64,000 nt of DNA from an uncultured Candidatus Saccharibacteria bacterium. Its GTDB lineage: Bacteria > Patescibacteriota > Minisyncoccia > Phycocordibacterales > UBA918. The notes beneath the pieces are model-generated. The model was not told the DNA's origin, searched no databases, and saw nothing but the letters and a program-made list of their open reading frames with translations. The position numbers were made by a program, and so were the translations under genes. Of this stretch, positions 12,200 to 52,964 are shown one piece after another (positions within the stretch are counted from its first letter, which is position 1; each line of letters starts with the position of its first letter). The stretch covers positions 47,782 through 111,781 of the forward strand of contig CAZVFY010000001.1 in the NCBI GenBank assembly GCA_964626635.1, read 5' to 3'.

Positions 12200-13225
12200 T
12201 TACTCAGCCAATGTGTAGGTACCGTTACTGAGTCGTTTGAACAAATTAGAATCTTGCAAATTTACTACGATAGTGTTGTCTTTGACATAGCGTTCGCGAC
12301 GGACACGGTCGATGATCTCTTCGCGTGATAGTGGACCTTCAGCGTCCAGAATGTCACGTAGGACCTCTTTGACGACGCCGGCAGTGTACCCCCACTCGGA
12401 CAAAGCGTACAGTCCGCGCCCCACGAGGACAAACCGATCGTCTTTAATCAACTCGTTGTGAGTAGTCGCGATGTGTGCTTTGTGTTCAAATAGTTCGTTG
12501 ATCGCTTTGGCAACCTCACGAAAGTGCATTGGTGATCCGTGACGCTTGACCGCGAGGTACGCGTAGTCCCGGATACCTTTGACGCGGATATTTGGACTTT
12601 CGGCGTGTCCCCAGTCCCCTAGCGGGTTTTGGTTAATTTGCTTTGAAATTTTGAGCCAGCGGCGCAAGACTTCTTCGGTGTGTTCTTCGGAAAGTTCAGC
12701 CAGTTCAGTTTTAAAACGATTGATAATATCTTGCTCGGTCACCAGATCATCACGCTTGAGGCTTTTGCGAACTTGGCGTAAGGCTTTTTCGACGCTGTCC
12801 GCTACTTTTTCTTGAGTGTACCAACGATGTGCATAGTACGGGTTCTCTTTACTGCGGTAGAACGTGTCCCCCACCACCAGGAGGAAGTACAGGTGATTAC
12901 GCACCTTTGGGTCTGTTGTCAGTTCGTCGAGTAGGACGTGTTCGGCGACCACCCCACCACCGAGTTGATCGATGAGCTTTTGTAATTCCAAAAATAGCTC
13001 GTAGTGCTTTTTATACACATCAGACTTTTGGACTGACTGGATACCGTAATTTTCGATCTGACGTACCCGTTCACGCGTGATGCCGTAGGACTGGCCAATG
13101 GCTTCGAGGGTGAAAGTTTCACCATCTTTGTTAAGGCCATAGCGCTTTTCGAGGACGTCGCGGGCGCGTTCTGGCAAAGCATCGAGTAATGCCTTGGTGA
13201 TTTGTTGTGGTTTAAATGAAATCAT
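12200..13225 (-). CDS. Sigma-70 region-4-like HTH fused to a HARE-HTH domain (putative DNA-binding regulator)
   Basis: The likely real start is M17 (MISFKPQQ) at 13225. The listed ORF extends to 13273 through a hairpin. LPERARDVLEKRYGL...TLEAIGQSYGITRERVRQIE is a sigma-70 r4 signature. C-terminal SPMHFREVAKAINE...DDRFVLVGRGLYALSEW matches the HARE-HTH pattern. Confidence 0.55.
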   Translation of the reverse strand: MISFKPQQITKALLDALPERARDVLEKRYGLNKDGETFTLEAIGQSYGITRERVRQIENYGIQSVQKSDVYKKHYELFLELQKLIDQLGGGVVAEHVLLDELTTDPKVRNHLYFLLVVGDTFYRSKENPYYAHRWYTQEKVADSVEKALRQVRKSLKRDDLVTEQDIINRFKTELAELSEEHTEEVLRRWLKISKQINQNPLGDWGHAESPNIRVKGIRDYAYLAVKRHGSPMHFREVAKAINELFEHKAHIATTHNELIKDDRFVLVGRGLYALSEWGYTAGVVKEVLRDILDAEGPLSREEIIDRVRRERYVKDNTIVVNLQDSNLFKRLSNGTYTLAE

Positions 13226-13338
13226 AGGTGGTGATTGAATGTTTGTGTGTGCGCAGCAAAACTTGCTGCGCACTTCAATGCGTGTTGTTATTTATAACAT
13301 ATTGGCAGAATATGGTCAACAACTCGCGATTGCCATCG

Positions 13339-16155
13339 TTACTGCACGATATTGAGGATCCGACCTGGCACATAGATCAACTTGCGATGCGGCTGTGGGG
13401 GTAATTTATTTGCAAGCGGCTTATCAGCCAAGGCTGCCGCTAGCGCCTCAGCCTCACTAGCGTTCGGCGCAATGGTGATGTTACCACGAACTTTGCCATT
13501 AACCTGCACGCCGATAGTGACCTGCTGGTCTTTGGCTAAATCAGCGTCATACGTCGGGAACGCGACTGTGTGCACACTTCCCTCACCATTTGTCTCACTC
13601 CACAGTTCTTCGGTAATGTGCGGCGCAAACGGCGCGAGGAGGCGTAAGAACGCCATATAACTATCATTGGTGAGACCAGTTTTCTCAACGGTATTGATGT
13701 AGATCATCATCGTGCTGATGGCCGTGTTAAACTTGAATGTTTCGATATCACCGCTTACTTTCTTGATAGTTTTGTGAAGTGCGCTGGTGGCGTCGTTCGG
13801 CTCATTGTCGGCAATGTGCTCTGATAGGCCATACACACGCTCGAGGAACCTTCGTGCTCCGACCAACCCATCCTGACTCCAGGCGATGGTGTTCTCGAAC
13901 GGGCCCATGAACATCTCGTACACACGCATGGTGTCAGCCCCGACAAGCGCGACGATATCGTCTGGATTGATGACATTCCCCCAGCGCTTAGACATCTTGC
14001 GTCCATTCTCTGCCAAAATAAAGCCAAGGAACTCGAGGCGTTTGAATGGTTCTGTCGTACTAACGACGCCGATATCGTAAAGGAACTTGTGCCAGAACCG
14101 CGCGTAGATCAGGTGACGCACCGCGTGGTCACCGCCGACATACACATCGACCGGAAGCCAATCTTTTTCTTTTGCGGGGTCAATAAGCTGCGCGGTATTG
14201 CCAGGGTCGACGTATCGCAAGTAGTACCAACTACTCCCCGCCCATTGCGGCATGGTGTTGGTTTCGCGCGTGGCACTGACCAGTTCTTTACCGGCCGGTG
14301 CTTCATCTGTCACCATAAAGTCACCATCATCGGTCAGGTAGCCGGTGACATTGACCCAGTCGTCGATGTTCGCTAGTGGCGAACGACCGTCACCAGCGGG
14401 CGCGTAATGCTCGACGTCTGGCAGAGTGACTGGTAACTGAGACTCGGCCACCGGTACGGCAGTACCGTCCGCGAGGTGCACTATCGGGAACGGCTCACCC
14501 CAGTAGCGTTGGCGCGAGAATACCCAGTCTTTGATTTTGTACGTAGAGGTCATGCGCCCCCCGACTTTTTTGGTGATGGCAACTTTGGCTTCCTCGGTAG
14601 ACATACCGTCAAACTCATTTGAATTCATTAGTTCTCCAACTCCAGTATTTACACCCGCCAGTGCTAAAGCAATGGTGCTTTGTAAAAATTCCGATGCTTT
14701 TTCTGCTTTAAGATCTGCAGCTGATGCTGCTTGGATAATTCCCGCACCCTCGCATAGAGTAAGTGAACTAGGATCAATATCTTCCACAACAAAAATCGCT
14801 ACAAATTTGCCGTCTTTTCGCTGATGAAATTTTAATAACCTGTGGGAAGAATGATGTTTGGTCAAATCAAGCATTAGTTCTTCTTTCGTCTCTCGGACAA
14901 CTGTCTGCCATACAGTCTCTCCCACTTCCATACCGCCACCAAAAACAGCAACTCCGCCCGGGTTTGATGGGGCATGTAAATCGCGCCTTTGGTAAAGAAA
15001 ATGTCCATCTGTAGTTTTTAAAATTAGTCCTGATGCATCAACACCGTCTGGAGCAGCGGGTACTACAACTTGCTTCACCTCGATTCCAAATTGCTTCGCA
15101 AACGCATAATCACGCTCGTCGTGCGCTGGTACTGCCATGATCGCGCCGGTGCCGTAGCTCGCGAGGACGTAGTCAGCGATGTACACCGGAATGGTTTCGT
15201 CGCTGGCTGGATTAGTTGCCGTGACGCCCTCTAATTTTATCCCGGTCTTTTCCTTGGTGTCGTCGAGGCGATCCATTTCTTTTTTGTTGGCTACATCCTC
15301 TATGTACGCCGCGACCTCATCCCAGTTCTCGATGGTGTTTTTGTGTTGCTGCACCAGCGTGTGCTCGGGCGTCAGTACCATGTACGTTGCACCGTATAGT
15401 GTGTCTGGGCGCGTTGTAAATACTGTGACCTGGTCACCAGTAGAAAGCGTGAAATCTATTTCCGCCCCTTCACTTTTCCCTATCCAATTACGCTGCGCTT
15501 CTTTGATATGTTCTGGCCAGTCGAGCGTGTCAAGGTCAGACAGAAGTCGATCGGCGTACCCACGAATACGCAGGGTCCACTGTCGCATCGGCCTTTTCTC
15601 GACCACGCTATCGCAGCGCTCGCAGGTACCATCGGCCTCGAGGTCTTCATTCGCGAGGCCGGTTTGACAACCCGGGCACCAGTTGATGGGTTCGTGACTC
15701 TCGAACGCGAGGCCTTTTTTGAATAACTGGATGAAAATCCACTGCGTCCATTTGTAGAACGCTGGGTCGGTGGTGTTGATCTCTCGTGACCAATCGTAGT
15801 CGAACCCAAGCTTCTCGAGCTGACTCTTAAAATTCTCGACGTTCTGGTCGACGGCTGCGCGCGGGTGGACTTTATTTTTGATCGCGTAGTTCTCGGCTGG
15901 TAAGCCAAAGGCGTCCCAACCCATTGGGTGGAGCACTTCGTGTCCGGTCATACGCATGAAGCGGCTGTAAATATCGGTGGCGATGTAACCTTTTGGATGT
16001 CCGACATGTAGCCCTTCCCCGGACGGGTACGGGAACATATCGAGGACAAAACATTTTGGCTTTTCAGAACTACTATCAGTCTGGTAGATCTTGGATTCTT
16101 TCCATGCTTGTTGCCATTTCTTTTCTATAGCAGCATGATCAAAGCGTTTATTCAT
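13339..16155 (-). CDS. leuS: Leucine--tRNA ligase carrying a Nudix-box insertion downstream of the CP1 editing domain
   Basis: 938 aa. HIGH (HVGHPKGY) and KMSKS (KMSKRWGN) motifs. Editing-domain TRPDTLYGATYMVLTPEH and GTGAIMAVPAHDERDYAFA. Extra segment at residues ~365-507 contains FGGGMEVGETVWQTVVRETKEELML. Confidence 0.95.
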   Translation of the reverse strand: MNKRFDHAAIEKKWQQAWKESKIYQTDSSSEKPKCFVLDMFPYPSGEGLHVGHPKGYIATDIYSRFMRMTGHEVLHPMGWDAFGLPAENYAIKNKVHPRAAVDQNVENFKSQLEKLGFDYDWSREINTTDPAFYKWTQWIFIQLFKKGLAFESHEPINWCPGCQTGLANEDLEADGTCERCDSVVEKRPMRQWTLRIRGYADRLLSDLDTLDWPEHIKEAQRNWIGKSEGAEIDFTLSTGDQVTVFTTRPDTLYGATYMVLTPEHTLVQQHKNTIENWDEVAAYIEDVANKKEMDRLDDTKEKTGIKLEGVTATNPASDETIPVYIADYVLASYGTGAIMAVPAHDERDYAFAKQFGIEVKQVVVPAAPDGVDASGLILKTTDGHFLYQRRDLHAPSNPGGVAVFGGGMEVGETVWQTVVRETKEELMLDLTKHHSSHRLLKFHQRKDGKFVAIFVVEDIDPSSLTLCEGAGIIQAASAADLKAEKASEFLQSTIALALAGVNTGVGELMNSNEFDGMSTEEAKVAITKKVGGRMTSTYKIKDWVFSRQRYWGEPFPIVHLADGTAVPVAESQLPVTLPDVEHYAPAGDGRSPLANIDDWVNVTGYLTDDGDFMVTDEAPAGKELVSATRETNTMPQWAGSSWYYLRYVDPGNTAQLIDPAKEKDWLPVDVYVGGDHAVRHLIYARFWHKFLYDIGVVSTTEPFKRLEFLGFILAENGRKMSKRWGNVINPDDIVALVGADTMRVYEMFMGPFENTIAWSQDGLVGARRFLERVYGLSEHIADNEPNDATSALHKTIKKVSGDIETFKFNTAISTMMIYINTVEKTGLTNDSYMAFLRLLAPFAPHITEELWSETNGEGSVHTVAFPTYDADLAKDQQVTIGVQVNGKVRGNITIAPNASEAEALAAALADKPLANKLPPQPHRKLIYVPGRILNIVQ

Positions 16156-16182
16156 GAATAGATTGTGCCACGATCTAAGTAG

Positions 16183-16566
16183 TTAGTCTATTAGTTTTGG
16201 TACAAACAGGTGTAAGTGGTAGTGGCCGGGAATAGACTTGTGTTTGGGAAGTGCTTCAGCTACAAACCCGTAATGTTCATTAAGATGCGTTGTTTTAATC
16301 TCGTACAATTCGCTTACTTCTTCATCCGAAAGTGCCGTTTCAATTTTGTGAGCCTTTGGCAGGATCATGTGGTGCACACTGGTAACTGCATCGTAGGGAT
16401 ATTTATTATCAATAATGCGCCAATACGTAAACTCATGCAGACTGGGTGCGCTACACAGTGGGCAGGTGTCAGTTTTTAGGTCAGCTTGACGGTCATTATG
16501 GTATTGCTGATGGGTGGCTTCTGTGCGCCAAGAGCGCGGTTGTAGGGTTTTGCTCAGGTTAGACAT
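16183..16566 (-). CDS. HIT-family (histidine triad) nucleotide hydrolase
   Basis: 127 aa. N-terminal zinc motif CPLC, HHMILPKAH, and the histidine triad GHYHLHLFVPK. It is co-directional with leuS and 27 nt upstream of it. Confidence 0.75.
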   Translation of the reverse strand: MSNLSKTLQPRSWRTEATHQQYHNDRQADLKTDTCPLCSAPSLHEFTYWRIIDNKYPYDAVTSVHHMILPKAHKIETALSDEEVSELYEIKTTHLNEHYGFVAEALPKHKSIPGHYHLHLFVPKLID

Positions 16567-16590: not shown

Positions 16591-16632
16591 TCACAAAAAG
16601 AAACCGCCCGCCCCACAAGTGGGGCGGGCGTT
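16591..16632 (-). terminator. Intrinsic (rho-independent) terminator after the EEP-family gene
   Basis: GC-rich hairpin ccgcccgcccc-acaagt-ggggcgggcgg, followed on the minus strand by TTTCTTTTTGTG. Confidence 0.6.
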
Positions 16633-16639
16633 GGACGTT

Positions 16640-17515
16640 TTACAGCGCCGTGATTGGCATCGTATCGCTGTTTGTGTTGCTGCCATGTGACAATGGCTTT
16701 AAGGTCACTTCAAGCGACAGCAAAGCATGATCCGACGGAACCGTGCGGTCAATCATCATGACAGCACTAAACTGTTCGACTAGGGCTGGTGACACCAGTA
16801 TGTAGTCTGCTTCACGCGTCGCTTTGTCTACCGGATAATGCCACGTGCGAGTATTCAAACCGTTCGGCACCAGATCATTCATAACTATTGCGCCATCTGA
16901 GCCAAAAATTTTACGGCACCGCACGATCTCAAGCGCCTCCATGGTGCGACGGTAGTTGAAGTCACCACCCAGGATCACATAGACTGGCTTATCAAAGCCG
17001 CGTACCTCGTTAACGCGCCGCTCGAGATGCTCGACAATCCGACAGCTTTGCTGGTCGCGTTCGGGGCTGTCAACCTTGCCCTTTTTCATCCAAAGCCCGT
17101 GAATGTGGGAGACGATCAGCCAACCTTCTTCGGTTGGAATGATGTAAGACTGAATCAGGCTACAACTTGAGATGACTCTTGGGTGCGACCAGTATTTACC
17201 GTACTCACCGTGAATCAGCTCTGTTTGGAGCGCAAACGGTGGATGTTTGCGATGATGAAACATAGCAAGTCCATACGCGGCACCACTACTCGCGCGCGCA
17301 GCCATCGAAAAGTGTCCTAAATGCGAGGTGTTAATCGCCAGACTCAGCCGTTCGAATTGATCGGGCATGGGTATTTTCGGGCGAGGCGCGGCCGGAAACC
17401 GACTACTGTGCATTTCGCTAAAGTTCGCAAAATCATAGATAGGTAGGTGTTGTTCGGCCCATGATTGATACCCCTCAGCTCGAGCGTACCAGGTATTCCA
17501 GAACGCAATTTTCAT
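16640..17515 (-). CDS. Endonuclease/exonuclease/phosphatase (EEP) family protein
   Basis: GGDFN and SDHALL motifs typical of the EEP fold. Start placed at M19 (MKIAFWNTW). The ORF is listed to 17569. Confidence 0.7.
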   Translation of the reverse strand: MKIAFWNTWYARAEGYQSWAEQHLPIYDFANFSEMHSSRFPAAPRPKIPMPDQFERLSLAINTSHLGHFSMAARASSGAAYGLAMFHHRKHPPFALQTELIHGEYGKYWSHPRVISSCSLIQSYIIPTEEGWLIVSHIHGLWMKKGKVDSPERDQQSCRIVEHLERRVNEVRGFDKPVYVILGGDFNYRRTMEALEIVRCRKIFGSDGAIVMNDLVPNGLNTRTWHYPVDKATREADYILVSPALVEQFSAVMMIDRTVPSDHALLSLEVTLKPLSHGSNTNSDTMPITAL

Positions 17516-17599
17516 TGTAAGGTACTCCTGTTTACAGAAAGATCTATTCCCGATCACCCTACCAGACACAATCCTTTTAGCAATGTATACTTACAAAAT

Positions 17600-18237: not shown

Positions 18238-19341
18238 CTAAGAATGAAGAAATTCGATCACGTCACCATCTTGGACGACATACTCTTTGCCCTCAGTGCG
18301 GAGTTTGCCAGCATCTCGGGCTGCTGCTCTTGATCCACTAGCGACCAAATCTGCGTACGTGACAACCTGCGCGCGAATAAATTTGTCCAGGAAATCAGTG
18401 TGGATGACCCCAGCTGCCTCGGGCGCGGTTGAGCCAATGGGGATGGTCCAGGCGCGAGATTCTTTTTCGCCAGTAGTGTAATAACTCATCAAGCCTAATT
18501 TGCGGTACGCCGCAGTAATGAGCGACTCTACCCCGCTGTCTTGCGTGCCGTATTCGCGGCGAAATTCGGTTTTCTCTTCGTCGGCCAGGTCGCGTAGCTC
18601 ATGCTCGACACCCGCGTCCACCACCACATATTCAGCGCCAGTCGTTTCAAAAAATGCGACTAACTCTTGCCACCTGGCATCATTGTGCTCATCAAAATTA
18701 TACGCATCGTGTTTGCGATTGCAGACGTACAGGAATGACTTCATGGTCAGTAATTGCAAGCCCTTCAGCAGTGCGCGCTCTTCATCCGACATGTCCATCG
18801 AATTAGCCAGCTGCCCGGCCTCTAGGTGGATCAACAGTCGCTCCAGTAGTGCGTCGAGCTGTGCGGCGTCTTTGTCACCGCGCTTTTTGTCACGCTCGTT
18901 GGATTGGCGGCGTTTGCTGGCGGTTTCGGCGTCGGCCATGATCAGTTCGAGGTTAATGGTTTCGATGTCGCTCATCGGATCCACACTGCCCTCGACGTGG
19001 TGAATGTCTTCGTCCTCGAAAATCCGCACCACCTCGGCAATCAACTGTGTTTCGCGGATATTAGCCAAGAATTGATTCCCGAGTCCTTCCCCACTCGAGG
19101 CGCCGCGCACCAGACCAGCAATATCCACGAACTCAACCACCGCTGGTACAACCTTTTCAGACTGCGACAGCTGCCCGAGGCTCGCGAGTCGTGCATCTGG
19201 CACTGGTACCACCCCGACCGATGGATCGATAGTAGCGAACGGATAATTGGCCACTAGCACTTCTTTTTTGGTGAGGGCGTTAAACAGGGTTGACTTGCCG
19301 ACATTGGGCAGACCAACGATTCCAACTGAGAGTTTTGACAT
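18238..19341 (-). CDS. ychF: Ribosome-binding ATPase YchF (Obg-family GTPase/ATPase)
   Basis: 367 aa. G1 motif GIVGLPNVGKST and a C-terminal TGS domain (KEYVVQDGDVIEF). Confidence 0.9.
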   Translation of the reverse strand: MSKLSVGIVGLPNVGKSTLFNALTKKEVLVANYPFATIDPSVGVVPVPDARLASLGQLSQSEKVVPAVVEFVDIAGLVRGASSGEGLGNQFLANIRETQLIAEVVRIFEDEDIHHVEGSVDPMSDIETINLELIMADAETASKRRQSNERDKKRGDKDAAQLDALLERLLIHLEAGQLANSMDMSDEERALLKGLQLLTMKSFLYVCNRKHDAYNFDEHNDARWQELVAFFETTGAEYVVVDAGVEHELRDLADEEKTEFRREYGTQDSGVESLITAAYRKLGLMSYYTTGEKESRAWTIPIGSTAPEAAGVIHTDFLDKFIRAQVVTYADLVASGSRAAARDAGKLRTEGKEYVVQDGDVIEFLHS

Positions 19342-46817: not shown

Positions 46818-49800
46818 TTAGAATGCTGGCGCTGCGATGTAGGCCACATCGGTCGCGTACTCACCGGCTGGTTGGAGCGCTGTCACGCTCGCGCGATAGA
46901 CCACGTCATGGGTGTCGACGGTTTTCTGGGCTGAATACATAATTTCTTGTGGCGTCGTATGAAGTGCCGCGTAAGCATCAGTCGGCGCGAACCGCGTCGA
47001 GCCACCCGACAGCGTGCCGTCAGTGGTGTGATATCCCACACAGCCAGTACCACTGCTAGAACAGGCACTGGCCCATCCAGCCGGCGCATTGTTGGTGCTG
47101 GTGATGTTGGCAATACTGTTACCACGTCCATCGATTAGTCCGCTGCGAGCGTACTTGTACACTCGGTAGCCATCAGTCGCGTTCGTGTCGATTACCAATC
47201 GTTGTGCCGCAATCACATCAGACCCCAGTGGTATTGATCCAAACCGGACGCCGTCGGCTGTCGTCGAAGCTGTTGTCGTGACGCCAGCAGTGGTGGTACC
47301 GCTCGGTACGCCATTAATGGTAAAGGTAAGGTTTGCGCCGTCAGAAACCAGTGAGGGGTAGCTCGCCCCATTGGCGAGCGAGACCGGCCGGCCGCGACCA
47401 ACGTCGTACAGCCGGAAATAGTAGACAATATTGGGGCGCAAGGCGGCTGGACTGATCGTAAACGAGTACTCTTGGGCTGCGCTCGCGGTGTGCGTGTGTC
47501 CGGTGACATACGCTCCAGCGCTATTATGCCGACCACAACCGCTACCGACGCTACTACTACAACTATCGGCACTCGCCAAGAGCGCAGTCGTGATAAGAGT
47601 GTTGTCGGACACAGCACCAGTATCGTAGCACCAGGGATCAGCTAGGGTACAGGTTCCAATCGGATTCAGTGTGTCCGCACTGCTAAAATCCGCCAGTGTT
47701 GAGACTTGCAGCGCGAACTTGGTGTCGACTCCTTCGACGTTTTTGGTTTCTGGTACCACTATTCGCAGCGCTAGTGTCGAAGAAGCACCAATGTCAGTCG
47801 GGGCGGTGTCGGGGTTTGCTCTTGGCTGCACTGGCGTTTCAGTTGCAGAGTCTTGATACCAACGCCACTCGCCAATCGCGGGTGAGAAATCTGCGGTACG
47901 CAACTGCGGATAATGTAAATAGCCGCGCAAGGGTGTCCCGCCACGCTCAACCATGCGGAAACAATATGGTGTATCAATAGCGGCGCCGTTATTTTCAAGA
48001 TACCAATCGTACTCGACCTCCTCTCCGTCAAACACGCGATAGGTATTGGATGCTGTGTCATTCTGCTGCTCGAGCGTACCGGCCACATCCGACACTGACA
48101 ACAGCAACTCACCAGACGTAGGCGGATCAGTCGACAACACATCGCCATCAGTCGTATTTGTCGAAGCATGCCCGCGCCAAATAGTGCTAGCCGCAGTGCC
48201 GCCCACGTCGCTCCAGGTCGCCACGGCACTACAGGTCGTTACCCGCTCGGCAAACTGCAACGTAAAGCGAACGAAGTCTTCGGGCAGGTTCGCGTTGCGC
48301 GCCTCAATTGACATCCGCAAGCGCAACACATCCCCGACGCCTGGCGGTTTATCGAGATCGGTGATCGAGGTATTTTCACCGAGGTCAACAGCCCCCGCTG
48401 GCCACGGATCGCTCGGCGTCAGTTGGTCATTATCGTCGTACCACCGATAGTAGCTTTGCTGGTATTGCAAATCAGCGATTGGCCACTGCACTAATTCGAC
48501 TTGGTAATACAACGTTTCACCAGTATCACTACGCCAAATTGCGTAAGTGGTGGGGTTAATAATTTTAAGGCCAGCAATCGAGCGTGGGTGGGCGTTATTG
48601 GTACCGTCAGCTGCGCTACTACCGAAAATCGACGCATTACTCACCGCTGATAGTGTGTCGGAAATACTGAGTGAAGACAGTAACGGCTCAGAGCCGCCCC
48701 GCATCGAGCCGCTTTGGCGTTCAACTTTCATGGCGCCAGGGCCTGTCTGCGTGTTGGCGATAACCCAGGCGACACCAGTGTGCGTATTGGTCATGTCCGC
48801 GTCGGCTGCGAGGCGGAACGAGACCGCACCGATACTAGACATGAACACTTCGTGTCCATGTGACGCAACCAGTGAATTACCAGTCATGCGCTTTTGCGGG
48901 TGCAAGAATGTCTGGGACAATGCGGGCACCGCGGTGATGCTCGCGGTCTCGGTCGTGCCAGCCTGAGTGTACACATGCTCGACACGATCAATTTGCCAAT
49001 TGAAGCCGGTGTATTCAACCACCGCATAACTGACAAAGGCAGTCACCCCAAGGGTGGCCGCTCGAGTAAATTCTGGTACATCGAGTGTCTCATTCCAGTC
49101 GCTCGTGAACTGCGTCGTATGGAAATCATTGGCCGTGTCGTCTCCCCCAATCCCAGTGATGAATACCACTACATCTGCATCATCTGCAATCGTGACACTT
49201 GGCCCAGCGACGGTGGTATCACCAAGACCAACCGACACCACCCCGACGTCGCGCACGATCATTTCGTTATCGGTGGTAGGTCGACCAATAAATTCAATAA
49301 TCTCCCAATCAATCCTCGTTTCATTAAGGTTTATGTCTCGCGTAAACGTAATACTAGTGTCCAGATTGTCGGGATTCTGAATGTAGGCAGTGACCTCCTC
49401 GACGTCTTGTGAGCCACCGCCATTAATATCGCCGGCTCCAGTGTGATGGGTGTTGGTAATACGAATAAATGCAGTGCCAGTTGCCGCTGGCGGCGTGTAG
49501 TCGGCACCAGCGGTGATGGTCGTATTTAAGCCCGTCAAGACAGTTGTACCACGCTGCGTCTTAAAGTCTTGTTTGGCAGACATAATGATCTGGGGGTATT
49601 GCTCGTAGCCTTCGAGTGCTTCATTATTGGCCACCAGTCGGAAGCAATAGGTGGCTTCGAATGCAGTCGCGTTCGTACTGGTCAAGCTAAACTCATACTC
49701 AATAAAAGTGTCTGCGGCGAGCGAGATTGCGCTCGTGCTGGCCGAAGATTCTCGTACCCCGTCGATACCGACGAACGTGGGTTCCCGGTCTGCGATACCG

Positions 49801-52800
49801 CCGTCTGCAATTGCAATATTGGTAGTTGCCTCATTGTGTGTCAGATTCACAGAATTGTTCATATCCCACTCATCACCAGCTACCGCATTGACCGCAATCC
49901 AAGTGTTTGCCAGAGCACTGCAAGAGCCAACTTGCTCGGCAAACTGTAATTGATACACGGTACTCGGGGCAGTGGCGCTACCGGCGTTGTGTACTCCCAT
50001 ACGTAATCGCACTGGCGTCGTTTGGTCAAAGCCATCAATGGCTGTGTTCTGCGTACCGTTCGTGTATGACGTCGCCCCAGTCTCTGACCCATCGTCGTTA
50101 CGCCAGTGGTAGTTCCCTTGCGTTAGCTCGGCCGCCTCGATCACTGTCGCACCCACCAGTGCAACGGGGGTCGACGGCGAGACTGACGCGCCGCCGGCTG
50201 CCACGTCAGCGGCCGGCGAGTCTATCTGCAGTTCAATTGTTTGGCCGTCCCTAACGCCATCTGCCACATCAGCAACGACGTACACACAGGCGGTCGCCTC
50301 TGTGGTGATGGTGAGAGATCCGCTGAAGGTTGAAGAACCATTTGCCGCTGGAAAACCGTTAGCATCCGTCGCACCAAATTGCGACTCAGTCCCAGCGTAT
50401 GATTCGCTGGCGCAGTTGTATGGGCTGCTGGTATCGAGATCATAAAACAGTGATACATTCGTCAGGTTTTGAGCATCGATCGTTCCTATTTCGGTCAGGG
50501 TCAGACTGCTGATGGTCTGACTCACGGCATTTGATCTGATCGCGAATGTACCGCCGAGGTACTGGCCAGTGCTGGGTGCCGTGAGAGCGGCTGCTTGCGT
50601 ACCGATAGCTGCCACTGATACATCGGCGTTGATCGTGACTTGGGGGTAGTTAGTGTAGGCGATCAGCGGTTCGTTATCTTTGACTAAGCGAAAACAGTAC
50701 GTGTTCCCTTCGACCGCACTGGCGGTAGCTGTCAGCGAGTACTCTAACTCTACAAAATCATTGGTAGTAAGGGTGTAACTACCACTGGTGTCGCTCGTTT
50801 CTAGGACGGCGCTATTAGGCGATCGGAAGTTGGTGTCGGCATCAGTAATCCCACCACTGCCGACAGCAATATTGGTCGTGTCAGATCCATGGGTCAGGTT
50901 TGATGAATCAAACATCGCAAACGCATCACTAGCGGCCCCAACGGCAACCCAACCGGTGACGAGGTCGCAAGTGGTGGCCGCTTCGGCAAATTGCAGTTGG
51001 AAGGATCCTGAATCGCTCGTGACAGACCCTTCGTTTGACACCCCGACGCGCAGTCGCAGTTGACCACTCGGTGTCAGCGATGAAAATCGCGTGTTCTCAG
51101 CCCCGCCAGTTAGAGATGTGGCGGTTGTTTCTGAACCGTTGTCACTCCGCCAATGGAAGTTGGTCTGGGTTACATCAGCGCCGACCAAGGCGGTCGTCCC
51201 AGTGATGGCTACTGGGCTGGCAGGAAACGCATCGCTACCGGTCACTCCAATATCAACTGTTGGGTCAGTAATCTGCACAGTAAACGTTTCCCCGTCCGGC
51301 GCCAGGCGGGTGGTATCAGTGATAACATAGCCACAAAATGTCGCTGTGGGACTGATGATCACCGCTGCTCCACCAAACGTCACCGTCCCGTCAGCTGCGA
51401 ACCCGTCTGTGGCAGTAGCACCAAACTGGACTTCGGTGCCGGCGTACGACTCGCTTTCGCAGTTGTAGGGACTAGTGATATCGAGCTCGTAAAATAGTTT
51501 GACGTTCTCGAACGCTGCGCCGACGGCATTAGTGCCCGTTGCGGTTACCGTAATACTTGATAAGGTATTGGTAAATAGACTGCTGATGGCGATCGCGCCA
51601 CCGACGTACAGATCAGCACGCTCGGCCCGTAACAGTGTGACTTGCGAACCAGTGGTGCTGACAACTGTGTCAGGGCCGATGTTGTCGAGCGTCTCGCCGA
51701 ACCGATCGTCCGTCGCTGCTTCCCACCAAGTAACATAGAGTCGTTCGGTGTTACTCGGATCAAGGGCGGGTTTGCGAATATCGCCAGCGGTGGTATTAAC
51801 TGGGCCCTCTTCCCCACCCCAGCTTGTCATGGCGTCAGTCGACCGCTGCCAGTATATATTGGCAGAACTAGCCGTACCGCCGGTGTCTTGGACTGTATAC
51901 GCAGCGTACACATTGCCATTATTTTGATCGATTGCTAATGACACATCGACAATACCGCGACCAGTTGCATTGCTGAGGACGTTGGCCATTTGCGACCAAC
52001 TGCTGCCATCATAGACGGCGGTTTTAATGTCATCATTGTTATCATTTAGAAAATTGTGATCCGTCACATACGCGAGATAGATGTGTCCATTGCTATGATT
52101 GATCATGCCTGACATACCACCATCGTACTCAGTACTTTCGGCAATGCCTGAGTCAATGGTTGTCCAAGTGCTTGACCAGCTGCTGCCATCCCAAATTTTG
52201 CTGCGTAGCGTGTTGGCCGATACATCGCGATTAATTAACATGATGTCGTCGTTATCAAGCGGCAACAGCAGCGTCGGGTCAGGGCTATTATCGAGTGGAT
52301 TGGTACCAGCTTCGACCCAATTCGAACCGGTGTTGCAGTTGGCTGTACAGCGCAAGACATAAGACTCGATCGGGCTATTGTTCGGCTGATTGTCAGTCAC
52401 CGCTGCGTACAACACTCCGTCCGTACCTTTGGTAAGCGTTTGTAAGTTTGCGGCTGAACTGAATGTCGTGACCTGTCCGGTCGGGCTCGAAATGTTGATC
52501 GGGCTGGTGCCGAGGAGTCGCGTGTCGGTCGATGTATCCAGCCGATTATAGAACAGACTGTCGGTATTGGTGTCCATGGTCAGGATGTGAATGTTGCTGC
52601 CAGTATCGTCAGGCGTCCAGCCGTCGTACCAGACCACAATCCTGATGCAGTCAGACTGAGCGTCCACTACTACCGCACTTGACCAAGTGGCACCGGCATC
52701 GGTTGACTTGCTGTAGACACAGCCACCATTGCGATCCCGATAAAACGCGTACCCAGTTTGATCAGTTATAAATACCGTTTGCGCCCCAGTGCTGTTGTTG

Positions 52801-52964
52801 GTGCGAGCTGTTGTACTAGTGTTGTCATCGATGATCACGACCGCTGCTCGAGCAAGTGGCACCCCACCGAACACACCCAGTCCCAGCAACTCGAGAATAA
52901 GTGCAGCAATAATACTGCCACTAACACAGTAGCGTACACAGGGAAAAAAGCGCAGTACATCCAT
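46818..52964 (-). CDS. Giant secreted protein: N-terminal BNR/Asp-box (sialidase-like) beta-propeller region plus four copies of an unrecognised ~190-aa Cys-pair repeat
   Basis: 2048 aa. Signal/TM N-terminus. Asp-box-like SKSTDAGATWS, QRSTDAMTSWG, DGSSWSS(T/Q). Repeats start (F/Y)HWR.DDGSE and end YCFR(L/M)V...Y.(N/Q)YPQ. Confidence 0.7.
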   Translation of the reverse strand: MDVLRFFPCVRYCVSGSIIAALILELLGLGVFGGVPLARAAVVIIDDNTSTTARTNNSTGAQTVFITDQTGYAFYRDRNGGCVYSKSTDAGATWSSAVVVDAQSDCIRIVVWYDGWTPDDTGSNIHILTMDTNTDSLFYNRLDTSTDTRLLGTSPINISSPTGQVTTFSSAANLQTLTKGTDGVLYAAVTDNQPNNSPIESYVLRCTANCNTGSNWVEAGTNPLDNSPDPTLLLPLDNDDIMLINRDVSANTLRSKIWDGSSWSSTWTTIDSGIAESTEYDGGMSGMINHSNGHIYLAYVTDHNFLNDNNDDIKTAVYDGSSWSQMANVLSNATGRGIVDVSLAIDQNNGNVYAAYTVQDTGGTASSANIYWQRSTDAMTSWGGEEGPVNTTAGDIRKPALDPSNTERLYVTWWEAATDDRFGETLDNIGPDTVVSTTGSQVTLLRAERADLYVGGAIAISSLFTNTLSSITVTATGTNAVGAAFENVKLFYELDITSPYNCESESYAGTEVQFGATATDGFAADGTVTFGGAAVIISPTATFCGYVITDTTRLAPDGETFTVQITDPTVDIGVTGSDAFPASPVAITGTTALVGADVTQTNFHWRSDNGSETTATSLTGGAENTRFSSLTPSGQLRLRVGVSNEGSVTSDSGSFQLQFAEAATTCDLVTGWVAVGAASDAFAMFDSSNLTHGSDTTNIAVGSGGITDADTNFRSPNSAVLETSDTSGSYTLTTNDFVELEYSLTATASAVEGNTYCFRLVKDNEPLIAYTNYPQVTINADVSVAAIGTQAAALTAPSTGQYLGGTFAIRSNAVSQTISSLTLTEIGTIDAQNLTNVSLFYDLDTSSPYNCASESYAGTESQFGATDANGFPAANGSSTFSGSLTITTEATACVYVVADVADGVRDGQTIELQIDSPAADVAAGGASVSPSTPVALVGATVIEAAELTQGNYHWRNDDGSETGATSYTNGTQNTAIDGFDQTTPVRLRMGVHNAGSATAPSTVYQLQFAEQVGSCSALANTWIAVNAVAGDEWDMNNSVNLTHNEATTNIAIADGGIADREPTFVGIDGVRESSASTSAISLAADTFIEYEFSLTSTNATAFEATYCFRLVANNEALEGYEQYPQIIMSAKQDFKTQRGTTVLTGLNTTITAGADYTPPAATGTAFIRITNTHHTGAGDINGGGSQDVEEVTAYIQNPDNLDTSITFTRDINLNETRIDWEIIEFIGRPTTDNEMIVRDVGVVSVGLGDTTVAGPSVTIADDADVVVFITGIGGDDTANDFHTTQFTSDWNETLDVPEFTRAATLGVTAFVSYAVVEYTGFNWQIDRVEHVYTQAGTTETASITAVPALSQTFLHPQKRMTGNSLVASHGHEVFMSSIGAVSFRLAADADMTNTHTGVAWVIANTQTGPGAMKVERQSGSMRGGSEPLLSSLSISDTLSAVSNASIFGSSAADGTNNAHPRSIAGLKIINPTTYAIWRSDTGETLYYQVELVQWPIADLQYQQSYYRWYDDNDQLTPSDPWPAGAVDLGENTSITDLDKPPGVGDVLRLRMSIEARNANLPEDFVRFTLQFAERVTTCSAVATWSDVGGTAASTIWRGHASTNTTDGDVLSTDPPTSGELLLSVSDVAGTLEQQNDTASNTYRVFDGEEVEYDWYLENNGAAIDTPYCFRMVERGGTPLRGYLHYPQLRTADFSPAIGEWRWYQDSATETPVQPRANPDTAPTDIGASSTLALRIVVPETKNVEGVDTKFALQVSTLADFSSADTLNPIGTCTLADPWCYDTGAVSDNTLITTALLASADSCSSSVGSGCGRHNSAGAYVTGHTHTASAAQEYSFTISPAALRPNIVYYFRLYDVGRGRPVSLANGASYPSLVSDGANLTFTINGVPSGTTTAGVTTTASTTADGVRFGSIPLGSDVIAAQRLVIDTNATDGYRVYKYARSGLIDGRGNSIANITSTNNAPAGWASACSSSGTGCVGYHTTDGTLSGGSTRFAPTDAYAALHTTPQEIMYSAQKTVDTHDVVYRASVTALQPAGEYATDVAYIAAPAF
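47340..48467. repeat. Two further diverged B-type repeat copies (B3 ~47895-48467; B4 ~47340-47873)
   Basis: Boundaries approximate. B3: YYRWYDDNDQ...LRLRMSIEARN...FTLQFAERVTTC...YCFRMVERGG...YLHYPQL. B4: WRWYQDSATE...LALRIVVPE...FALQVSTLADF...YYFRLYDVG...SYPSL. Confidence 0.45.
49575..50567. repeat. Intragenic supra-repeat copy 2 (A2 + B2 modules, residues ~800-1130)
   Basis: Boundaries approximate. A2 (FYDLDTSSPYNCASESYAGTESQFGATDANGF...) and B2 (GNYHWRNDDGSETGATSYTNG...YCFRLVANNEALEGYEQYPQI). Confidence 0.5.
50625..51602. repeat. Intragenic supra-repeat copy 1 (A1 + B1 modules, residues ~455-780 of the giant protein)
   Basis: Boundaries approximate. A1 (FYELDITSPYNCESESYAGTEVQFGATATDGF...) and B1 (TNFHWRSDNGSETTATSLTGG...YCFRLVKDNEPLIAYTNYPQV) are repeated in copy 2. 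Confidence 0.5.

Follow-up and report, generated by a model that had tools for sequence, protein, structure and literature searches.

The small gene that abuts leuS in the 64,000-nt stretch of DNA analysed here (hereafter the window) encodes a divergent protein of the HIT superfamily, and its contact with the synthetase gene is probably an accident of genome compaction. The reading we prefer, and consider fairly probable as a whole, is that this HIT protein belongs to a gene block inherited by descent, that its abutment to leuS results from compaction, and that there is no dedicated partnership with LeuS or with the Nudix domain that LeuS carries. The first-pass annotation had instead suggested that the two genes form a dedicated adenylate-clearing unit which, if true, would represent a new adenylate/dinucleotide quality-control module around an aminoacyl-tRNA synthetase (aaRS) in ultra-small bacteria. 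The outcome appears ordinary: a divergent, recognisable HIT enzyme in a housekeeping block conserved by descent, which gene loss would have brought against leuS.

The 127-aa ORF is a genuine gene, judging by its 26 close homologues (E from 1e-29 to 1e-49) and the 22 alignment columns that are invariant among them. These columns include C35, P36, C38, W49, N54, Y56, P57 and D59, as well as H65, H73, S111, P113, G114, H115, H117 and H119. The translation contains CPLC (aa 35-38), NKYPYD (aa 54-59), HHMILPKAH (aa 65-73, running from H65 to PKAH73) and HYHLHLF (aa 115-121); the last holds the HxHxH triad near the C-terminus (H115-Y-H117-L-H119-L-F) within the longer motif S111-IPG-H115-Y-H117-L-H119. 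The minus-strand ORF, the three motifs first reported for it (CPLC, HHMILPKAH and HYHLHLF) and its distance of 27 nt from leuS can thus all be seen directly in the sequence (Table 1). The stop codon of the HIT gene occupies positions 16183-16185 and the leuS ATG positions 16153-16155. Both gene models are matched by the calls that JGI made independently for this contig, and the leuS start site is confirmed by the TIGR00396 alignment, which begins at residue 6. An 87-aa ORF on the opposite strand (16216..16479, plus) was rejected as a true gene, the conserved frame being that of the minus strand.

Table 1. Coordinates of the features discussed in the text, in window positions.
Feature	Position	Strand	Evidence and remarks
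DUF8128 protein, 444 aa	10767-12101	minus	JGI precomputed Pfam; no match in our own Pfam scan
Sigma70_r4 + HARE-HTH protein, downstream of leuS	12200..13273	minus	Pfam; synteny
leuS, bacterial-type leucyl-tRNA synthetase, 938 aa	13339..16155	minus	TIGR00396 943 bits; Pfam tRNA-synt_1, tRNA-synt_1_2, Anticodon_1
Nudix domain within LeuS, aa 375-469	14749..15033	minus	Pfam NUDIX 36.6 bits (cutoff 21.1); box GGMEVGETVWQTVVRETKEE
HIT-leuS spacer, 27 nt	16156..16182	minus	Sequence scan: no terminator-like hairpin, no promoter-like consensus
HIT gene, 127 aa, divergent HIT-superfamily protein	16183..16566	minus	ORF listing, ATG start
Terminator-like hairpin, 11-bp stem with 10 G-C pairs, loop of 4, then GTTTCTTTTT	16595..16630	minus	Scan
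EEP-family gene (endonuclease/exonuclease/phosphatase), upstream of HIT	16640..17569	minus	Pfam PF03372 25.0 bits
ychF, ribosome-associated ATPase/GTPase	18238..19341	minus	Pfam YchF-GTPase_C, MMR_HSR1; synteny anchor upstream
2048-aa ORF	46818-52964	minus	

Pfam and NCBIfam scans of the 127-aa HIT protein returned no match at E<=0.01. At a lax Pfam threshold (E<=10) the sole match was DUF3605, with an E of 0.014 and below cutoff; neither PF01230 nor any other curated HIT-clan model recognised the protein. A phmmer search against PDB sequences likewise gave no match, and a profile of the close homologues matched only Rv2613c in the PDB (E 8.5). Since no family model recognises the protein, the HIT name had to come from its fold and from profile bridging. 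Modelling with AlphaFold2 from the alignment (pLDDT 87.4, pTM 0.79) gave the alpha+beta HIT fold, and the top Foldseek matches of this model in the PDB were all HIT proteins (probability 1.0). The best of them was an Ap4A phosphorylase, and the nearest structures in general were Fhit-like or Ap4A-phosphorylase-type bacterial HITs, with a small margin over Hint and GalT.

The profile bridge was provided by an alignment of 65 diverse members of the family (A2), which hhalign linked to P0235 (Pfam PF01230 + PF11969, i.e. HIT and DcpS_C) with a probability of 98% and an E of 1.4e-13, pairing CxxC, NxFPY, PKRH and HxHxH. When the 65 members were scanned singly with Pfam, DUF3605 was matched by 14 (best E 2.8e-4, all below the gathering threshold), PF01230 by nine (best E 6.5e-6) and DcpS_C by eight, these last two weakly, and DUF4922 and CwfJ_C_1 by three each. 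DUF3605 (PF12239), the family that members match most often, if weakly, is uncharacterised, and we take it to be a member of the HIT clan. The full triad is retained in 62/65 relatives, H117 and S/T111 in 65/65, and CxxC in 53/65. From the motifs, the AlphaFold2 model, the Foldseek matches, the hhalign bridge and the retention of the triad, we conclude that the small protein is a member of the HIT superfamily with its triad intact, as far as sequence and a predicted model can tell. The HIT-family identity first given to it is therefore right at the superfamily level, even without a Pfam or NCBIfam match.

A HMMER scan covering 1.84 billion representatives of 50%-identity clusters detected 773 relatives at E<=1e-3, of which 419 reached E<=1e-10; almost all of the relatives are 110-130 aa long. 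The named genomes that encode a relative were Patescibacteria MAGs (species representatives) in 14 cases out of 14, belonging to Paceibacterota, Kaiserbacteria, Parcubacteria and, in one case, Saccharibacteria. By these sequence matches, the HIT protein is part of an uncharacterised family, centred on the Patescibacteria (Paceibacteria and their kin), for which neither Pfam nor NCBIfam offers a dedicated model. A literature search on DUF3605 and on HIT proteins in the Candidate Phyla Radiation found nothing relevant.

The HIT protein looks catalytically intact, since the triad, S/T111, H65/H73 (on the H-x-x-x-x-P-K-x-H strand) and CxxC are kept across the family, and its sequence suggests chemistry of the hydrolase or transferase type. 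By analogy with the HIT superfamily, H117 would attack the alpha-phosphate of a nucleoside-5'-phosphoryl substrate (NMP-X), giving a covalent nucleotidyl-histidine intermediate at H117 that water (or phosphate) would resolve with release of NMP. H115, H119, S111, H65 and H73 would assist H117 in this reaction. C35 and C38, together with a histidine, probably form a putative structural zinc site of the sort found in GalT and Zn-HIT structures, and a 'zinc motif' is probably what the CxxC represents, as we infer from these precedents. In alignment A2 the N-terminal helix of the family carries R14 in 65/65 members and Y22 in 62/65; this helix probably touches the substrate on the side of the leaving group and shapes leaving-group specificity. 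The default candidate substrates, again by analogy, would be dinucleoside polyphosphates or acyl/amido-adenylates.

The spacing between HIT and leuS has to be read against the organisation of the window as a whole. When ORFs of 80 aa or more are counted (greedy calls), the minus strand encodes 45 of the 50 genes, and 42 of the 49 neighbouring pairs are co-oriented. Same-strand gaps have a median of 42 nt, and 16/42 measure 30 nt or less. Given this strand bias and the frequency of short gaps, a co-oriented gap of 27 nt is the norm in the window and carries little information.

The terminator-like hairpin is strong, and the scan places it at 16630-16605 on the minus strand. It lies between the stop of the EEP gene (16640; the JGI call for this gene has 291 aa and spans 16640-17515) and the start of HIT (16566), some 30 nt ahead of that start. 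The 91-nt region around it is predicted to fold with an energy of -34.3 kcal/mol (z -2.8). If a promoter lies between the terminator and HIT, the distance of ~30 nt would leave the transcript with a very short leader or none; a scan of the minus strand saw no sigma-70-like site within HIT, ahead of it or in the spacer. With a terminator upstream of HIT and none in the 27-nt spacer, it is plausible from the sequence that HIT and leuS are co-transcribed in the window genome, possibly along with genes beyond.

Of the 75 loci assembled to place this arrangement among relatives, 7 came from looking up the exact protein, 14 were drawn from genomes and 54 from metagenomes; many of the contigs are short. 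HIT, LeuS, YchF, the sigma-like gene and DUF8128 were mapped by tblastn, and collapsing the loci at 90% HIT identity left 54 groups. We defined a close clade by a HIT protein at least 48% identical to that of the window, which comprises 12 informative groups plus locus L006, 13 in all. In 10 of these 13, leuS lies downstream of HIT on the same strand. The gap between them is 27 nt in the window only; in the other nine loci it ranges from 489 to 2264 nt and contains one to three genes. The usual +1 neighbour of HIT is a DUF5671 membrane protein of ~300 aa (13 loci). The first-pass annotation had suggested checking whether HIT-leuS adjacency is conserved, and it is not: it is direct in 1/10 of the leuS-linked close loci, the window itself, and in the distant part of the family (<48% identity) leuS is found nearby in 1/21 informative groups (L070, with DUF5671 in between).

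On the other side of HIT, ychF lies upstream in 12/13 close groups and is directly adjacent in five. In L025, L027, L030, L032 and L033, HIT follows ychF with a gap of <25 nt, and by virtue of these gaps ychF, rather than leuS, is the tightest recurrent neighbour of the close HIT clade. In all related loci, leuS is directly followed by the sigma70_r4/HARE-HTH gene and then by DUF8128. The conserved unit, as read from these sequences, is thus a co-directional block, ychF ... HIT - DUF5671 - leuS - sigma-like - DUF8128 - yceG, and conservation of the whole block argues against a specific HIT-leuS pair. Within it, the sigma70_r4/HARE-HTH protein is unusually conserved, at 75-83% identity across relatives whose LeuS proteins share merely 46-65%.

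One of the close loci suggests how the direct contact could have arisen. The 489-nt HIT-leuS spacer of L029 (L029:7385-7873) contains three fragments of DUF5671 detected by blastx, corresponding to residues ~5-38, 134-167 and 266-303. Judged by these fragments, it is a decaying DUF5671 pseudogene, an intermediate towards the 27-nt spacer of the window, and no DUF5671 homologue was found in the window. The EEP gene, upstream of HIT in the window, lies downstream of it in L022 (7474-8295), L025 and L044, where it is sometimes duplicated; this switch of position implies a local rearrangement. We propose that the housekeeping block of the close clade was inherited by descent as a co-directional array, and that the DUF5671 gene was lost in the window genome, with EEP now on the other side of HIT. 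This loss would have left HIT abutting leuS, probably transcribed with it from just past the terminator. The abutment would then be the outcome of genes being lost and rearranged locally as the genome shrank, and the L029 pseudogene would provide a clean example of how genome compaction can produce suggestive adjacencies.

Beyond the close clade, the contexts of HIT homologues are heterogeneous (HAD hydrolase, methyltransferase, APH-type kinase, peroxiredoxin, TrmB regulator, Maf, holin), and no conserved functional neighbour was found across the wider family, hence no clue to the substrate. In locus L046 (896-2963), a 46%-identical HIT homologue comes directly after, and overlaps, the gene for GluRS, the only other aaRS neighbour among ~30 independent distant loci. 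Such linkages could be taken to mean that the protein is a translation-linked housekeeping HIT, hydrolysing stray aminoacyl-adenylates or NpnN of any aaRS in a Hint-like or Fhit-like role, and loosely retained near translation genes (ychF, leuS, occasionally gltX) without a tie to the Nudix domain. The retention of the ychF...HIT...leuS block, with ychF directly adjacent in five loci, the homologue following GluRS, the structural neighbours acting on Ap4A and Ap3A and the 'Ap4A HIT family hydrolase' labels that JGI gives to several members are all consistent with this idea. However, these database labels are automatic annotation, a single aaRS neighbour among ~30 loci is about what chance would give (a rough estimate), and the remaining distant contexts are diverse. 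Moreover, the block also holds unrelated genes (the DUF5671 membrane protein, EEP and the sigma-like gene). We therefore consider a general role in clearing the by-products of translation unlikely.

The family may nevertheless have a loose functional tie to aminoacylation, as leuS is linked to HIT in most of one clade and in L070, and L046 has the gene after GluRS. A stronger version would make the family a new branch of the superfamily tied to aminoacylation; in the lineage of the window its gene would have joined the operon of leuS, whose product gained its Nudix domain independently. Such enzymes would remove leucyl- or other aminoacyl-adenylates, or NpnN, arising from aaRS, in organisms that need to conserve scavenged nucleotides. 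To this stronger version we give little credence.

The Nudix insert of LeuS, pointed out in the first-pass annotation, is borne out by its Pfam match (Table 1). Its Nudix box was found by regex, and its limits were set by alignment with Nudix-less relatives: it follows the CP1 editing domain and stands, flanked by 'KQVV' and 'NSxEFDGM', where those relatives have a loop of ~25 aa. A Pfam-significant NUDIX insert is present in the LeuS of the window, L007, L023, L041/42 and L043, and a similar insert is recognised in the L022 protein from its length and Nudix box only. The insert is absent from the LeuS of L014, L029 and L035 (811-822 aa), which have a loop of ~25 residues instead. The Nudix box is intact in the window and in L007 and degenerate in L041 ('...ITEIEEEA') and L023, where HIT stays intact. 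Since HIT lies upstream of LeuS both with and without the insert, its linkage to leuS is, by sequence comparison among loci that were themselves selected through HIT homologues, independent of the Nudix domain. A search of a 5.8-billion protein set with the insert gave no match at E<=1e-3, and a literature search on LeuRS and Nudix found nothing relevant. Variable in both presence and box integrity among close relatives, the insert is the more interesting object of this region.

These results bear directly on the idea that HIT and the Nudix domain of LeuS form a dedicated unit, clearing or signalling via leucyl-adenylate and/or Ap3A/Ap4A, with adjacency selected for co-expression. In the window the pair does look like a unit, with a co-oriented 27-nt spacer devoid of a terminator and a terminator separating both genes from the upstream gene. 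In 10/13 close loci, moreover, HIT lies upstream of leuS at a distance of no more than 2.3 kb, and the nearest solved structures include an Ap4A phosphorylase and Fhit-type ApnA hydrolases. Both aa-AMP and Ap4A are known products of aaRS enzymes, although LeuRS ranks with those that produce little Ap4A (PMC10148737). The proposal is not supported, however: relatives do not share the direct adjacency, and HIT is decoupled from the Nudix insert. Contact is restricted to the window genome, where loss of DUF5671 would explain it, a Nudix-less LeuS follows HIT in L014, L029 and L035, and several Nudix boxes have degenerated, yet HIT remains intact. The scarcity of leuS near HIT in distant loci (1/21) and the ordinariness of short co-oriented gaps in the window weigh in the same direction. 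A dedicated HIT and Nudix-LeuS unit is accordingly quite improbable, and the preferred reading remains that of an inherited block compacted by gene loss.

The first-pass annotation had also invoked the Hint/Fhit branches; here, membership of the HIT superfamily stands, and sequence models place the protein in neither branch, the best sequence match being a half of GALT and the best structural match an Ap4A phosphorylase. Hint/HinT proteins (HINT1, E. coli HinT) are purine nucleoside phosphoramidases and aa-AMP hydrolases, and Fhit is an Ap3A hydrolase. In hhalign comparisons to human HINT1 and human FHIT, each represented by a single sequence, probabilities were 38% and 17%, respectively; we give these low values no weight in choosing a branch. 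The residues after the triad of our protein (FVPKLID) are not those of the Hint branch: the HINT1 sequence used for comparison has 'VLGG' where the window protein has FVPK, and the N-terminal regions are also unlike. The C-terminal extension of Fhit is absent from the window protein, which has a CxxC that FHIT is not known to have. Similarly, we know of no canonical Hint or Fhit protein with the N-terminal R14/Y22 helix. COG0537 Fhit-like/Ap4A-phosphorylase HITs (M. tuberculosis Rv2613c, PDB 3ANO; E. cuniculi Zn-HIT, 3R6F; B. anthracis, 3IMI) share only ~21-22% identity with the window protein, which differs from them in the additional helix at its N-terminus that carries R14 and Y22, in a 'YPYDAVxxxH' segment that is longer by 3 residues and in a shorter core (~94 aa).

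When the family profile was compared to PDB sequences, the one significant match was the C-terminal half of human GALT (aa 201-293, E 2.7e-4), in an alignment that sets the family helix R14...Y22 opposite 'QREERSQQAY' and also covers the PKRH segment. Generic HIT entries followed with E values of 0.15-0.6, and Hint-type entries with E >= 0.15. This match, together with the recurrence of a glycosyltransferase and a TrmB sugar-type regulator near distant members, would fit a GalT-like enzyme rather than an adenylate hydrolase: a nucleotidyl transferase or phosphorylase with nucleotide-sugars or related compounds as substrates, and a single-domain relative of the GalT half-domain. However, GalT is a tandem of half-barrels of ~350 aa with its catalytic HxHxQ in the N-terminal half, whereas the window protein is a single 127-aa domain with HxHxH, and the half of GALT that it resembles is the non-catalytic one. 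The strong hhalign link to a Pfam-HIT protein (P0235) also argues against this possibility, which we regard as very improbable. Given the small structural margin and the match to a half of GALT, set against HxHxH and a single domain, the protein is placed at the superfamily level only, sequence models giving no Hint or Fhit assignment.

It is extremely improbable that the protein is a MccH-like immunity phosphoramidase directed against aminoacyl-adenylate mimics (microcin C, agrocin-84) and placed beside the gene of the target synthetase: MccH-type HIT hydrolases do cleave the P-N bond of toxic aminoacyl-adenylates, TM84, the warhead of agrocin-84, is a leucyl-adenylate mimic that inhibits LeuRS (PMC8323819), and the gene adjoins leuS in the window, but the neighbourhood lacks the genes for biosynthesis or transport that such systems have and gives no PADLOC or PHROG matches, the adjacency is not conserved, and leuS is the housekeeping copy in a conserved block. 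A phage or defence reading of the HIT locus was dropped, as neither PHROGs nor PADLOC gave a match.

Under the preferred reading, in which an inherited block was compacted around leuS, interest also attaches to the family to which the HIT protein belongs. It is sizeable (hundreds of 50%-identity clusters), lies outside Pfam and NCBIfam, and has family-specific residues in R14, which is invariant, and Y22, which is nearly so. At one distant locus (L074:4444-6984), the gene after the HIT homologue encodes a SNF2-family helicase with an intein that carries a HNH endonuclease domain.
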